Shown in pieces: positions 5,633 to 9,672 of a stretch of 27,296 bases of DNA. Location of the stretch: NCBI GenBank assembly GCA_036401415.1, contig DASWVA010000205.1, positions 1 through 27,296 of the forward strand, written 5' to 3'. Below the pieces are notes generated by a model that made no database searches, was not told the origin of the DNA, and saw nothing but the letters and a program-made list of their open reading frames with translations. The position numbers and the translations under genes are program-made. This DNA comes from Streptosporangiaceae bacterium. GTDB taxonomy: Bacteria; Actinomycetota; Actinomycetes; Streptosporangiales; Streptosporangiaceae. Positions within the stretch are counted from its first letter, which is position 1; every line of letters begins with the position of its first letter.

Positions 5633-6186
5633 AGGCCTTTCCCCTCCCGCGTCACCGGGTCCGGCCGCAGGGCCGCCCGCAGCAGCCGGCGGGCCCGGTG
5701 CGCCCGGCTCTTCACCGTGCCCTCCGGGAGCCCGGTCAGCTGCGCCACCTCCGCCACCGGCCGGTCTTCGACGTACACCAGCCGCCAGATCTCCCGGGCC
5801 GCGCTCCCGGCCGGCCCGAGCGCGTTGACCGCCCGCTCCAGATCGGCCCGGGACACGGCGGCCTGCGCCGGGTCCGCGGCCGTGCCTTCGTCCGCCGCCA
5901 CCAGCGCGGGCAGCGGCAGTGTGGCCGTGCCCCGCCGGCGCAGCAGCAGCGCGGCCTGCCGCCGGGCGATACCCCAGGTCCAGCCGCCCGCTGCCCCCTC
6001 GGGCCGGTAACTCTTCGCCCCCCGCCACACCGCGAGAAACGTCTCCTGCAGCACATCCTCGACGTCGGCGGCCGGCAGCACGCTCCGCAGGCGCGCGGCC
6101 AGCCACGGCGCGTGCCGGGCGAACAGTTCCCGCAGCGCCGCATCGTCGCCCGCTGCCACCGCCGCGAGCAGTCCGTCGTCGTCCAT
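5629..6186 (-). CDS. ECF (group 4) sigma-70 factor, 185 aa
   Basis: Region 2 (ALRELFARHAPWL...DVEDVLQETFLAVWR...WTWGIARR) and region 4 HTH (EDRPVAEVAQLTGLPEGTVKSRAHRARRLLR). Start is ATG 6186 (preferred) or GTG 6225. Confidence 0.93.
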   Translation of the reverse strand: MDDDGLLAAVAAGDDAALRELFARHAPWLAARLRSVLPAADVEDVLQETFLAVWRGAKSYRPEGAAGGWTWGIARRQAALLLRRRGTATLPLPALVAADEGTAADPAQAAVSRADLERAVNALGPAGSAAREIWRLVYVEDRPVAEVAQLTGLPEGTVKSRAHRARRLLRAALRPDPVTREGKGL

Positions 6187-6191
6187 CGCTT

Positions 6192-6291
6192 CTCTATTGC
6201 GCCCGAGCCCTCGCCGGTTCACCACCCCGGCGCAAATATTGCCCGCACCGGGGCCGGGGCGGCCAGCCGGTCCTGACCTCGGGGAATAGAG
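6192..6291. promoter_or_regulatory. Mirrored divergent promoter-like motifs A(A/G)CCGG-N6/7-CTCGGG-N3/1-AATAGAG
   Basis: Minus copy aaccgg-cgaggg-ctcggg-cgc-AATAGAG ends 5 nt before ATG 6186. Plus copy agccgg-tcctgac-ctcggg-g-AATAGAG (6265-6291) ends 7 nt before GTG 6299. Confidence 0.35.
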
Positions 6292-6298
6292 TTTGCCT

Positions 6299-6796
6299 GT
6301 GACAAACGTTGCTCTGCCGCCCAGCTCCGTGGGCCGGGCCTTTCACGAGGAACTCGGCCCGGGCCAGCAATCCGCCCTGGTCAGCTGGCTGGCGTTCACC
6401 GGGACGTTCGCCGGGCTGCGCGGGCTCACCTACGGCATCCGCACCGGCAAAGGGCCGTTCCGCAACATCAGCGTCGGCGGTGAGCACCTGCACCACTACC
6501 TGTGGGGCATCGGCCTGCTGTCCGGGGTCGGTGCGGTCGCGGTCCGCGGCGAGGAACGGCACCGCCGTCATCCGGCCGTCGGCGTCAGCTACGGCAGCGG
6601 CATGGCGCTCATCGTGGACGAGTTCGCCCTGCTGATCGACCTGCGGGACGTCTACTGGGCCAAGCAGGGCCGGATCTCGGTCGACGTCGGTGTCGGCGGT
6701 ATCGCCGCCGCCGGGTCGTACTTCGCGGCGTTGCCGGTGCTCCGCCGCCTGCGCCGGGAACGCCGGGAGCGCAGGCAGCAGCAACGTCAGGGGTAG
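6299..6796 (+). CDS. Conserved-type integral membrane protein with HLHH and DE/DVYW motifs
   Basis: About 4 hydrophobic segments, GEHLHHYLWG, IVDEFALL, DVYWAKQGRISVD and an Arg-rich C-terminal tail. Start is GTG 6299 or TTG 6293. Confidence 0.8.
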   Translation: MTNVALPPSSVGRAFHEELGPGQQSALVSWLAFTGTFAGLRGLTYGIRTGKGPFRNISVGGEHLHHYLWGIGLLSGVGAVAVRGEERHRRHPAVGVSYGSGMALIVDEFALLIDLRDVYWAKQGRISVDVGVGGIAAAGSYFAALPVLRRLRRERRERRQQQRQG

Positions 6797-6909
6797 GACG
6801 CGGGAAGTCCAGCCGGGTCACGCCCGCCGCCCGCGAACGTGACCACCGACCAGAGCAGGACCGCGCCGGGATAACCGCCCGGGAGCTGGCTGCCCGGTTG
6901 ATACCGGCC

Positions 6910-6980
6910 CGGCTCGGTGTGACCGCCCCGTTCTGGTTCGCCTTCGCCGGCCGGGCCATCATCCTGGTCCTGATCTGGCC
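6910..6980 (+). pseudogene. Possible C-terminal remnant of an MFS transporter
   Basis: ARLGVTAPFWFAFAGRAIILVLIW resembles the last TM helix of actinobacterial MFS exporters. It has no start codon and overlaps the phosphatase 3' end antisense. Pattern recall only. Confidence 0.3.
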
Positions 6981-7501
6981 TTCGCGGCCGCGGCCAGCCA
7001 CTGTTCGACGCTGCGCAGGTACGCCGGGACCAGTTCGGCCTGGGGGCGGTAGCGGAGCACCAGCGCGGCCGCCCCGGTACGGTCGTGCCCGCGCAGCCGC
7101 AGCACCGCGTAGCTGACCATGGCCGAACGGCGCCGGCCCATGGTGCAGTGGATCAGCACGCCCGCCTGCGGCTGGTCGTCCAGCACCTCCGCGGCGAAGC
7201 GCGCCGCCTGCGACCAGGTCGCAGGGCGCTGCCGCAGACCGTGGTCCTGCATCGGCGCGTGCGCCACCCGCCCGCGCCCGAACGCCGCCCGCTCGGCGGC
7301 CAGATCGCCGGACCACCACACGTCCGCCCGCGGCCGGCAGTTGACGACGTGGGTCACGCCCTGCTCGGCCAGGCCTGCCACCGCGGCGGGCGGCGGCACG
7401 GCGCTGATCGCGATGCGCTCGTCCCCGATCCAGCTCAGCGCCGGACGGCCCGCCTCGGGCCCGGTCAGGCCGCCCGCGCGCACGCTCCGCAGCACTTTCA
7501 T
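6959..7501 (-). CDS. Dual-specificity / protein-tyrosine phosphatase family protein, 180 aa
   Basis: Catalytic loop IHCTMGRRRS (HCxxGxxRS), general-acid loop PMQDHG, GVTHVVNC. GGAGG RBS upstream of ATG 7501. Confidence 0.87.
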   Translation of the reverse strand: MKVLRSVRAGGLTGPEAGRPALSWIGDERIAISAVPPPAAVAGLAEQGVTHVVNCRPRADVWWSGDLAAERAAFGRGRVAHAPMQDHGLRQRPATWSQAARFAAEVLDDQPQAGVLIHCTMGRRRSAMVSYAVLRLRGHDRTGAAALVLRYRPQAELVPAYLRSVEQWLAAAAKARSGPG

Positions 7502-7544
7502 GCCCGCCTCCGACCTCACCGTAATACAGCCGCCCGCTGCGGGC

Positions 7545-8063
7545 TCAGCCGCCGGGCGGGGCGGGTCGCGGCGGCTGCACGTAGTAGCGCAGCGTCGGCG
7601 TGAGCCCGGACGGCATCGACCACGGCGCGCGTTCGCGACCAGCGAGCCGCCACCCGGACTGCTCGTAGGCAGCGATCGCGGCCCGGGCGTCGTCGACGAC
7701 GTCGAGGACCGCGACCAGGCTGGCGGAGACGGCGCGAGCCGCGGCGGTCGCGAGTAGTTCGCGGGCCTGACCCGTCCGGCGTGCGGCCGGGTCGACGAAC
7801 AGGCGCACGACCCCGGCGAGCTCGTGTGCTTCCCGCCCGGTCGCCTGGAGCAGGCAGCCGGCCTGCGCTCCGCGGACCAGCCCGACATGACCAGCCACCG
7901 CACCGTCCTGCTCGGCCACCCACGCCGTGATCAGCCCCGGCGGGCACAGCCAGCCCGCCGGGTCGTCCGGCCAGCGAGCCGGGTAGCCGCTCCCATCATG
8001 GACACGCCGCAGCATCGCGACACAGGCGCCGAGGTCCTGCGCCCGGCGGGTCCGAATCGGCAC
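7545..8063 (-). CDS. GNAT-family N-acetyltransferase, 172 aa
   Basis: Motif A VVRLFVDPAARRTGQARELL and motif B AAIAAYEQSGW. TG-n-CAGACT -10 element (8071-8076) lies 7 nt before GTG, suggesting a leaderless start. Confidence 0.85.
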   Translation of the reverse strand: MPIRTRRAQDLGACVAMLRRVHDGSGYPARWPDDPAGWLCPPGLITAWVAEQDGAVAGHVGLVRGAQAGCLLQATGREAHELAGVVRLFVDPAARRTGQARELLATAAARAVSASLVAVLDVVDDARAAIAAYEQSGWRLAGRERAPWSMPSGLTPTLRYYVQPPRPAPPGG

Positions 8064-8173
8064 GCTGGGCAGTCTGCCACACTGCCGGGCACATGACCGA
8101 GCGCACGCGGGTCACGGGGTGTTCACCAGCGGGCTTGTGGTTGACTGGTCGTCCACTAGCACAGGGAGCATCG

Positions 8174-8455
8174 GTGACCCAGGAACCGGACGCGGTCGAT
8201 CCGCGTAACAACCGCGAATCGCAGGTGGCCGAGGAGTCGGCCAGCCAGACGGTGTCGCGCTCGAGTGCCGGAGGCCCCATCTTTTCGGGACTCCGCCCGG
8301 CGGACGCCGTCCCCGGCCAGTCCGATCTGGAGGACGGCGATCGCGGGGCCGGTACCGGCGGGGGAAACCCGCTGGATGGTGTGCTCATCGACCCGGCCGA
8401 TGCCGAGCAGGCCGTGCCGGGGGACGAGGGCCCGGAGCATCCCGGCCAGCGCTGA
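8174..8455 (+). CDS. Small acidic, low-complexity hypothetical protein, 93 aa
   Basis: AGGGAG RBS before GTG 8174; D/E/G/P-rich sequence; a hairpin follows the stop. No family recognised. Confidence 0.5.
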   Translation: MTQEPDAVDPRNNRESQVAEESASQTVSRSSAGGPIFSGLRPADAVPGQSDLEDGDRGAGTGGGNPLDGVLIDPADAEQAVPGDEGPEHPGQR

Positions 8456-8468
8456 CCGGCCTCAAGGT

Positions 8469-8491
8469 GGCGACGCCGAACAGGCGTCGCC
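8469..8491 (+). terminator. Hairpin, probable terminator of the small acidic gene
   Basis: GGCGACGCC-GAACA-GGCGTCGCC, a perfect 9-bp stem 13 nt after TGA 8455. Confidence 0.5.
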
Positions 8492-8496
8492 CCAGC

Positions 8497-8525
8497 TTGA
8501 CGAACACCCGGCGCTCAGGAAGAGT
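8497..8525 (+). promoter_or_regulatory. Putative housekeeping-sigma promoter for the leader and APH-like gene
   Basis: TTGACG (8497-8502), 17-nt spacer, AAGAGT (8520-8525; one mismatch to TANNNT). The predicted TSS near 8532 is just before the structured leader. Confidence 0.45.
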
Positions 8526-8533
8526 TTCCGTCA

Positions 8534-8663
8534 CGGTGCCGACCGGTCGCCGAGCTGTGGAACATCTGCCCCAGCCGGGGTTTCACTGGCGAAGGGGATT
8601 GCCCTCTCGGTCGTCACCGCCGCAAGCCGCTGAGGGACGAGGGTGTCAAGTGGAGGCTTGTCC
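8534..8663 (+). ncRNA. Candidate structured cis-regulatory 5' leader (family not recognised)
   Basis: Hand-derived pairings: P1 8534-8546/8607-8619 (12 of 13 positions pair, one C-U mismatch), P2 UCGCC 8547-8551/GGCGA 8588-8592, CCCC-AGCC-GGGG hairpin 8569-8580, AGGG/CCCU 8593-8605. CAAGCC 8623-8628 can pair with GGCUUG 8655-8660, overlapping the GGAGG RBS (8652-8656). Confidence 0.45.
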
Positions 8664-9640
8664 ATGACCAGGGACGCCAGCTTCAAGAAGGTGTTCCGCC
8701 GTCACGCGGAGGAGACTGGTCAGCGCTATACCGAAGCGCTGACCGATCTCGAAGGTCTCGGTGCGCGAATGCACCACGAGCCAGCTTCTTAACGGCTGCT
8801 CGATCATCTGCGGGATCGTTACGGCATCGACCCGGCCGCGGGCCGGTGTTGAGGGCGACGCCGCGATCCTGCGCTTCCCGGAGCGGCAGGACTATCCCGC
8901 GGAGCGCCTCGCGGCCGATGATGCCGTATCTGACTTCGGCGGCAGCGCGGTCCTGGTGACGCGGTTCGCCGAAGGCGGCGCGCTCCCTGACGGCGCAGAG
9001 AAGTTCACCATGATGGGTGTGCTGCTCGGGCGGCTGCACGCGCTGCCCTACGACGAAACCGCCGCCCGCCCGGGTGGATCAAGCGGTGAGGACCCGAGCC
9101 GTGAGGGCGCGCCCGTCAGGACCTGCTGGCGGCCCCGTCATTTCTCGACGCCGCCGACACCAAGGTGCCAGCCGCCGAGCGTGATCGATTCGAGCGGCTC
9201 AGGGACATGGTGCGCTCGGCTGACGGCGCTCACGGCCTCCCGGAAGGCCTGCTTCACGGAAACCTCCTGCACGCCCCCGATCACGCCGTCCTGACCGGAC
9301 GAGGGCCGGTCGCGATCAACTGGAAGGCGTCCGGGCGCGGGCCGCGCCTGGCCGACTTGGCCTACCTGATCTGGGGCACCGGTTCGTGGCACCCTCGCCA
9401 GCCGAACCCGGCGTGGATCGACGCTGCCGTCAGCACCTACCGCCGGCATGTCGAGCCGACCGACGACGAACTGGACCGGCTCGAAGCGGTCATGTACATC
9501 CGGCCGCTCTACCTCGCCTGTTTCAGTTACCGGCGTGCCATCACCAATGGCGTCAAGTTCCGTGAGTGGGACTTCACCGGTCCACCTGAATACTTCAGCT
9601 CTACCGCCGCGGCCACCCGGGCCGCGTTCCGCCGGCAGGC
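8664..9640 (+). pseudogene. Aminoglycoside-phosphotransferase (APH/choline kinase)-fold protein, disrupted
   Basis: GGAGG plus ATG 8664 (MTRDASFKKVFRRHAEETGQRYTEAL...). In-frame TAA at 8790-8792 inside HEPAS*RLLDHLRDRYGIDP; frame change near 8833; 1-nt frameshift near 9112. Kinase-fold motifs GVLLGRLHAL, LLHGNLLHAPDH, VAINWKASGRGPRLADLAYL. No stop at the expected end; the frame runs antisense into the next gene up to 9827. Confidence 0.8.
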
Positions 9641-9672
9641 CGTCATGCCGGGCGGGCCGGCCATCAACGCGG

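Follow-up and report, generated by a model that had tools for sequence, protein, structure and literature searches.

A candidate structured cis-regulatory leader RNA upstream of an APH-fold gene in Actinomycetota, with a decayed copy in a Streptosporangiaceae genome

We analysed a 27,296-nt stretch of DNA (the window) from a Streptosporangiaceae bacterium (GenBank assembly GCA_036401415.1, contig DASWVA010000205.1, positions 1 to 27,296). The contig comes from a metagenome-assembled genome (MAG) with 68% completeness, and its genus, shared with the closest genomes compared below, is probably Trebonia. On balance, we favour the reading that window positions 8497-8663 comprise a promoter and a degenerate copy of a ~165-nt structured 5' untranslated region (5' UTR), and that this leader belongs to an undescribed family of cis-regulatory RNAs in Actinomycetota. 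The family is conserved in sequence, its helices covary and it keeps a fixed place directly before one gene. A first-pass annotation of the locus had proposed an undescribed cis-regulatory RNA at this site; the proposal holds for the family, whereas the window's own copy is a decayed relic. The recurring unit would be a cassette of a sigma-70-type promoter, the leader and a single gene for an APH-fold protein with a basic N-terminal module.

Of 20 genomes from the same genus, 9 contain DNA that is ~80% identical to window positions 8495-9644. In these copies homology begins exactly at the -35 box, and the flanks are unrelated between genomes. The leader stands at the same position in all 80 metagenome loci retrieved via the protein (80 of 357 loci were taken in). 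When genomes, one for each species, were scanned for the pattern and then searched with a broader covariance model, at least ~60 further full-length copies came to light. Isolates with the leader include Kribbella antiqua VKM Ac-2541, Kribbella capetownensis, another Kribbella sp., Actinopolymorpha rutila, Glycomyces luteolus NEAU-A15 and Actinoplanes sp. CA-142083; many MAGs carry it as well. Homologous leaders upstream of related proteins were thus collected in number and found to be conserved. Every copy precedes the same APH-fold gene, whose product starts MT(K/R)xxSFKKVVRRHA, and the five isolates searched have one copy per genome. Restriction to the mRNA of one gene family is what would be expected of a protein-binding leader. 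Several gene families that would point to a common ligand were not found among these loci, and the flanking genes are not conserved.

Overall the element is rare. The broader model (R2) matched 1 of 150 other class-level genomes, and a narrow model (R1) gave no matches outside the genus in 150 genomes of the order, partly because R1 was built from near-identical sequences. This rarity, flanks unrelated from genome to genome and, in one genome, a transposase gene close by suggest that the cassette moves horizontally. In that genome, Actinoplanes sp. CA-142083 (locus L175), a gene with a Mu-transposase C-terminal domain (6010-7509) lies ~330 nt downstream of the cassette and a LuxR/STAND regulator gene lies upstream; a LuxR-type gene is also found 5' of the cassette in the intact genus copy L007. 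Neither the LuxR/STAND nor the transposase neighbours are conserved at the other loci.

The cassette carries its own promoter. The sequence TTGACG-N17-AAGAGT, named as a promoter in the first-pass annotation, is present at 8497-8525 and is footprinted across taxa: TTGAC keeps a constant offset in almost every one of 78 homologous loci, and further upstream the loci have unrelated DNA. In relatives, an xAxxxT hexamer (GAAGAGT, GAAAAAT, GATGAT, ACAAT, TAGACT) ends 5-6 nt 5' of a conserved CACGGCG. Since both the TTGAC offset and this spacing are conserved, the transcript probably begins at the 5'-terminal hairpin P1', with a predicted start at ~8531-8533. A consensus promoter scan did not call the site in the window, and a terminator scan of the window made no call either; a terminator-like U tract is absent.

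To what extent the leader is constrained can be read from nucleotide diversity, which we computed across 70 full cassettes. Diversity is ~0.5 upstream of the -35 box, drops to ~0 at the box and is 0.26 in the promoter spacer and 0.073 in the leader. Within the gene, codon positions 1, 2 and 3 have values of 0.065, 0.058 and 0.21. The leader is therefore ~3-fold less diverse than third codon positions (Mann-Whitney p = 1.6e-24) and close to positions 1 and 2, which indicates purifying selection as strong as that on amino-acid-changing sites. It can still be aligned, with invariant blocks, where the proteins are only 40-43% identical and keep the N-terminal module. In such distant members, stems change with pairing kept (GGAA/UUCC to GAGG/CCUC; CGUC/GACG to CGCC/GGCG). 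Indels of 1 and 2 bases are scattered across the leader, which rules out a conserved coding frame within it.

Covariation was assessed in a 78-sequence alignment fitted to nested helices; neither of the two pseudoknots described below was in the model that built it. Proposed pairs are paired in 96.5% of cells. Changes on both sides were seen in 21 pairs, compared to 11.3 +/- 1.8 in shuffles (0 of 500 reached 21) and 7-15 in slid controls, and the covariation score was 0.161 compared to 0.045-0.065 for the slid versions. Cells with G.U (457) outnumber those with A.C (47) by ~10:1, which points to pairing on the sense RNA. In a structure-blind G-test with average product correction, a column pair of the second pseudoknot (54/146) ranks 8th of 13,695 column pairs, and five proposed pairs fall in the top 40, where 0.15 would be expected (~30-fold). 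Compensatory changes in the helices of homologous leaders are therefore present, as anticipated for a structured RNA. Within the genus, sets of 11 and 91 sequences hold too little variation for this type of test, and slid controls did as well as the proposed pairs.

The fold that emerges for the family begins with the hairpin P1', in which the innermost columns vary with pairing kept (14/23: GU 37, AU 5, UA 5, GC 4; 15/22: CG 69, UG 6, UA 2). Its loop is one strand of a first pseudoknot (PK1), whose two strands lie ~65 nt apart and show matched insertions or changes in relatives (GAACC/GGUUC in L199, GGACC/GGUCC in L105). The P2 arm follows, and all four pairs of its helix P2a covary (GGAA/UUCC to GAGG/CCUC, GGGA/UCCC and GGAG/CUUC). 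From the loop of this arm a CCCC-containing strand reaches the apical loop GCUGGGG of the 3' hairpin P4, forming a second pseudoknot (PK2). PK2 is 99.2% paired, and its columns 54/146 read CG 53, UG 12 and UA 9. In L207, L163, L153 and L084 a 1-base deletion in the C run is matched by a 1-base deletion in the G run, the two strands being 95 nt apart. The first-pass annotation had paired the CCCC run locally, with the GGGG at 8577-8580. This local pairing reaches 94.8% with zero double changes, and as a feature of the family it gives way to the distant GCUGGGG loop, which is the better partner. The stem of hairpin P3 is 99.7% paired around a loop of 3-6 nt that varies in length and sequence; with no double changes, its pairing is conserved and not proven.

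The 3' hairpin P4 brings the Shine-Dalgarno (SD) sequence into the structure. Its base helix P4a (columns 114-120/183-189) is 96% paired with four covarying pairs. Further up, helix P4b of the relatives pairs the SD sequence GGGG or GAGG (columns 177-180) with an anti-SD UCUU or UCUC (columns 124-127) in 94% of cells, mostly through G.U pairs, and two of its pairs show double changes. The start codon is kept as ATG or GTG across the family. Both the helix that occludes the SD and the helix below it thus covary (four pairs in P4a, two in P4b), as would be expected of an expression platform, and the promoter footprint would place the covarying domain within the 5' UTR. Coupling of the SD helix to the tertiary fold through PK2 is suggested by the pairing model.

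We compared this family fold with the helices that had been drawn by hand for the window. The drawn elements are all present: 12 of 13 positions pair in the closing helix (8534-8546/8607-8619), and the sequence also allows the inner helix (8547-8551/8588-8592), the hairpin with the CCCC/GGGG stem (8569-8572/8577-8580) and a third hairpin at 8593-8605. The minimum free energy (MFE) fold of 8532-8670 by RNAfold gives the same three-way junction, followed by a hairpin (8622-8628/8655-8661) adjoining GGAGG. In relatives, the hairpin 8593-8605 and the CAAGCC:GGCUUG pairing around the ribosome-binding site are conserved. The closing helix fares differently along its length. Its core, GACCG with CGGUC, is conserved and corresponds to PK1, whereas the outer 4 bp stem from window-specific substitutions; in the 78-sequence alignment the outer columns (13-15/102-104 and 22/96) have 10-30 unpaired sequences. 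The general architecture of a structured 5' domain joined to an SD-sequestering platform therefore stands, but a 5' hairpin plus pseudoknot is at least as well supported as the three-way junction, which leaves more unpaired cells at its outer pairs. The two arrangements may be alternative conformers. Two pairings that had been proposed to compete with these helices did not hold up. For GACGA/UCGUC the UCGUC partner varies, with column 103 unpaired in 30 of 78 sequences; for GAGGG/CCCUC, where the third G changes it is the hairpin partner that compensates (GUGUC/GACAC, AUGUC/GACAU), not CCCUC.

The window's leader has an MFE of -58.9 kcal/mol compared to -57.1 +/- 4.0 for dinucleotide shuffles (z = -0.45), 66 of 200 shuffles equal it, a second shuffle test gave z ~0, and the reverse strand folds no better. 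By this measure the window alone is no better than chance, an outcome that had been named beforehand as speaking against a functional RNA. For an intact genus copy the value is z = -3.25, and 14 intact copies range from +0.2 to -3.4 with a mean of -1.6.

It is highly improbable, in our view, that the RNA has no function and that the pattern reflects recent horizontal spread or a DNA operator, such as the palindrome GGCGACCGGTCGCC, with helices arising by chance in GC-rich sequence. The window's shuffle statistics are what this would predict. The differing flanks, the one nearby transposase and the patchy distribution (1 of 150 class-level genomes, 9 of 20 in the genus) would also fit, and the 14-bp palindrome does overlap the predicted start. 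Against this, synonymous sites and the promoter spacer are three-fold more diverse than the leader, and the compensatory changes and the 10:1 ratio of G.U to A.C are expected of a sense RNA and not of DNA sites. Indels are matched between PK2 strands 95 nt apart, and the palindrome halves themselves vary with pairing kept (columns 14/23 and 15/22). Together, the diversity, the compensatory changes, the matched indels and the G.U excess largely refute a non-functional RNA.

Several observations nevertheless weigh against a regulatory leader as we describe it. The top ranks of the structure-blind test mostly reflect clade signal at columns that do not pair. Pairs were counted on an alignment fitted to nested helices, which favours these helices, and most sequences are close kin of a mobile cassette, so that many are not independent. 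Folding energies lend modest support, and some intact members show none (z of +0.16 and -0.55). The two versions of the 5' domain draw on one set of invariant GGCG/CGCC strands and are inseparable here. It is unusual for a metabolite riboswitch to be tied to one gene family, and the many truncated genes described below may mean that the whole cassette is often under relaxed selection. Finally, the transcription start, the regulation and any ligand are read from sequence.

With these points in mind, we propose the following model for an intact cassette. The transcript would start at the terminal hairpin and fold into a compact domain held by two pseudoknots, one between loop GACCG and CGGUC and the other between loop CCCCAGC and the apical loop GCUGGGG of the 3' hairpin. 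This 3' hairpin would pair the anti-SD AUCUUCC and its flank with the SD directly before the start codon. The grip of the tertiary fold on the weak, G.U-rich SD helix would then set translation initiation, and a factor that stabilises or disrupts the fold would set expression.

A leader that needs no specific effector seems improbable to us, whether as a constitutive 5' UTR that stabilises the mRNA or as an RNA thermometer that melts at the SD helix. The predicted transcript opens with a stable hairpin, which would suit a stabiliser. The anti-SD:SD pairing UCUU:GGGG, with three G.U pairs and internal loops on its flanks, would suit a thermometer; an SD helix of this kind resembles fourU-type thermometers. 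Yet ~100 nt of near-invariant sequence and two long-range pseudoknots exceed what either role requires, and invariant unpaired blocks such as GGCGAAGGGGA survive protein divergence to 40% identity. The linked gene is, moreover, neither a heat-shock nor a virulence gene.

What might act on the RNA is best approached through the linked protein. The intact product has 357 aa, an APH fold and a basic N-terminal module, which AlphaFold models as three short helices ahead of the kinase fold. Foldseek searches with this model returned a generic APH fold, with homoserine kinase II, YihE, AmiN, LicA, MphH and corramycin phosphotransferase as neighbours, none of which hints at a substrate. The protein had no match in NCBIfam or in a PDB sequence search. 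Its N-terminal module belongs to no Pfam family and matched nothing in the protein-cluster atlas, and a protein search of 300 class-level genomes found no further relatives with this module. Leader-linked proteins have HGN and INW in place of the canonical HPD and (V/I)DW (window 9255-9323; P0001 and relatives), and the HxD loop is likewise missing from a deeper leader-linked branch (P0140, P0144, P0150, P0154). The canonical residues HPD and (V/I)DW are found in P0204, P0206, P0219 and P0262, which share the N-terminal module. Judged from these residues, it is possible that the leader-linked clade, without catalytic aspartates, consists of pseudokinases.

Upstream of the canonical relative P0206 (locus L107), the leader model found no match in the 119 nt available. 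A hairpin, UGCC-GCUGAGG-GGCA, lies there at 60-100 before the GTG of P0206, and its loop is the window's variant of GCUGGGG; it may be a variant leader.

These features bear on the trigger, for which we consider a small molecule (a riboswitch) most likely and the encoded protein second. The small molecule is ranked first because the domain is complex, invariant and pseudoknotted and because the RNA is more conserved than the protein. A more specific version is tentative, and we regard it as possible rather than probable: the leader may be a new riboswitch class whose double-pseudoknot aptamer senses a small molecule, plausibly natural product- or antibiotic-like, and switches translation of a mobile APH-fold pseudokinase that binds or sequesters that compound. 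Autoregulation, which we judge somewhat unlikely, would keep the same RNA anatomy with a different trigger: the APH-fold protein, possibly through its basic three-helix module, would bind the leader and repress its own translation. The presence of the motif before one gene family only, in one copy per genome, is consistent with this, as is the conserved basic module with its three predicted helices, and the missing catalytic Asp residues (HGN, INW) would fit a binding over an enzymatic role. On the other hand, the same module is present in the four canonical relatives, including the one whose 119 nt upstream gave no match to the leader model, and RNA binding by a module found in no Pfam family or atlas cluster is pure conjecture.

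Of the readings considered, the least probable is attenuation by a leader peptide, in which an upstream open reading frame (uORF) would sense ribosome stalling ahead of an antibiotic-resistance-type kinase gene. Several genus members do have an ATG or GTG near window position 8617 that opens a ~22-codon frame with a TGA overlapping the main ATG, and the Foldseek neighbours include the antibiotic kinases AmiN, MphH and corramycin phosphotransferase. However, the start is ATG, GTG, CTG or ACG depending on the genus member and has no SD, many members have 1-2-base indels within the frame, and the frame is not kept in distant members. A conserved short open reading frame (ORF) with its own start and SD was accordingly not found. 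In some genomes the leader is open in the frame of the gene itself (L175 4510-5682; P0027, P0059, P0109), and gene callers and a number of database records accordingly list N-terminally extended proteins (368-399 aa) in which part of the RNA element is translated. A uORF or an N-terminal extension based on this in-frame reading was considered and rejected as an artefact of GC-rich sequence; indels break the frame.

We now turn to the window's own copy. It lacks 18 nt after 8628 that are present in all 10 genus copies and in the other full-length members (~18 nt). The deleted segment held the anti-SD AUCUUCC and the 5' strands of the inner helices P4c and P4d, and the remaining PK2 loop carries a G-to-A change at 8633 relative to the family consensus GCUGGGG. 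The covariance-model score is 112-114 bits for the window compared to 150-205 for intact genus copies, and the window departs from 14 columns that are at least 95% conserved, compared to a median of 1 in other members. The gene is also broken. The ORF that follows the leader ends after 42 codons, compared to 357 aa in the intact homologue. Comparison with intact L007 by tblastn and pairwise alignment identified three lesions: the in-frame stop TAA (8790-8792), loss of 98 bp at ~8832 and loss of 1 bp at ~9113. The two deletions total 99 nt, so the C-terminal part is back in the original frame. A functional member would combine an intact leader with an intact ORF, and the window has neither. Since the anti-SD and half of the inner hairpin are lost, the pseudoknot loop is mutated and the gene is broken, the sequence indicates that the window element is no longer functional and is a decayed relic before a dead gene. 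Positions of the features are given in Table 1.

Table 1. Features of the leader cassette at the window locus, with pairing in relatives where available.
Feature	Window position	Strand	Remarks
-35 box TTGACG	8497..8502	+	Cassette's own promoter; homology to all relatives starts here
-10-like hexamer AAGAGT	8520..8525	+	17-nt spacer after -35 box
P1', 5'-terminal hairpin	8534..8552 (8534-8540/8546-8552)	+	Columns 9-15/22-28, 94% paired
PK1 5' strand GACCG	8541-8545	+	Loop of P1'; core of the earlier closing helix
P2'	8554-8557/8587-8590	+	Part of P2 arm 8554..8590
P2a GGAA/UUUC	8559-8562/8581-8584	+	All four pairs covary
PK2 5' strand CCCCAGC	8569-8575	+	In P2 loop; partner is the GCUGGGG loop at the P4 tip
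P3 hairpin AGGG/CCCU	8593..8605 (8593-8596/8602-8605)	+	Within invariant GGCGAAGGGGA...CCCUC
PK1 3' strand CGGUC	8608..8612	+	Columns 17-21/97-101, 97% paired
P4a 5' strand GCAAGCC	8622..8628	+	Base of SD-sequestering hairpin; pairs with 8655-8661
Inner-hairpin remnant	8629..8645	+	Loop GCUGAGG 8629-8635, then P4d and P4c 3' strands
P4d 3' strand GACG	8636-8639	+	5' partner deleted
P4c 3' strand GGUG	8642-8645	+	5' partner deleted
SD region GUGG AGG	8650..8666	+	GGAGG 8652-8656; P4a 3' strand 8655-8661; ATG 8664-8666
APH-fold (Pfam PF01636) pseudogene	8664..9644	+	Weak Pfam APH match

Damage to the gene is not confined to the window: some form of truncation affects ~16 of 70 leader-linked genes. 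At L140 (7697-7861) and L153 (7678-7840) the leaders look intact while the ORFs are down to 31 and 16 codons, each joining, in frame, a few residues from either end of the protein. Some of the truncated genes may be long-read indel errors.

Directly upstream of the window's -35 box, at 8470-8494, we observed a perfect 9-bp GC-rich hairpin (GGCGACGCC, loop GAACA, GGCGTCGCC). It has no T tract and is not common to relatives; it may be the terminator of an upstream unit. A GNAT acetyltransferase gene lies upstream of the promoter on the minus strand (7545-8063), and the ~430 nt in between (8064-8496) contain just ORFs without a Pfam match (8093-8455 on the plus strand and 8156-8440 on the minus strand).

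The leader did not match a known RNA family. Against Rfam 15 the window gave no match at the gathering score, and 8300-8850 stayed without one at E <= 10. For L007, an intact genus copy, the search returned just a 10-bit chance match on the opposite strand, and the divergent members L103, L105 and L106 returned none at E <= 1. The first-pass annotation had been unable to place the element in a known riboswitch class, and these empty searches of the window and four relatives agree with it. The searchable literature holds no description of this leader RNA. We therefore treat the family as an undescribed, riboswitch-like cis-regulatory leader candidate.

Among described elements, the dauA motif of Streptomyces is an orphan riboswitch candidate whose multi-stem junction contains the SD (Narunsky et al. 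2024, PMC11109978). Like dauA, the leader is a multi-stem 5'-UTR motif that was found by comparative analysis, includes the SD, is tied to one gene family, has no known ligand and could respond to a protein factor. Unlike dauA, to which it is unrelated in sequence and fold, it is larger (~165 nt), has two long-range pseudoknots, is tied to an APH-fold gene and is patchily spread over several actinomycete orders, apparently by horizontal transfer. The SAM-II and preQ1 classes are translational riboswitches in which SD sequestration is tied to a pseudoknotted aptamer. The leader shares with them a paired SD region coupled to a pseudoknotted fold directly 5' of the start codon; it differs in showing no sequence or model similarity, in having no known ligand and in serving one gene family instead of a metabolic regulon. 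In the manner of ribosomal-protein leaders such as the rpsF leader (S6:S18), it occurs only before the gene of its would-be binder and overlaps the translation start region. In contrast to those leaders, its product has a kinase fold and not a known RNA-binding fold, and binding is conjectural.

RNA thermometers of the fourU and ROSE types are short hairpins before heat-shock or virulence genes and have no large invariant pseudoknotted domain. The leader resembles them in the U-rich anti-SD that pairs with the SD through weak G.U pairs, and differs in the ~100-nt conserved pseudoknotted 5' domain attached to it. Lastly, Jia et al. reportedly proposed in 2013 an aminoglycoside-responsive leader of integron aac/aad resistance genes, a proposal that is said to be disputed in the field. 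That leader, compared here by description only, is likewise structured, precedes a gene of an antibiotic-modifying-enzyme family and has been proposed to act on translation; it is a different element with a different host range and gene family.

As regards the window, the finding is the more ordinary one of a dead copy before a dead gene, and neither the 42-codon ORF nor the leader should be annotated as functional at this locus. For the family, the consequences would be broader. If our reading is true, it adds to Actinomycetota a class of structured cis-regulatory RNA that is absent from Rfam 15 and from searchable papers. Its architecture would be unusually intricate, with two pseudoknots that include a link between the 5' domain and the apex of the SD hairpin, and the pairing model is directly testable by compensatory mutants. 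Its sole partner gene encodes an uncharacterised kinase-fold protein that apparently lacks the catalytic aspartates. In conclusion, the RNA would offer a way into the function of this protein family, since the agent that switches it is likely to be either the ligand of the protein or the protein itself.

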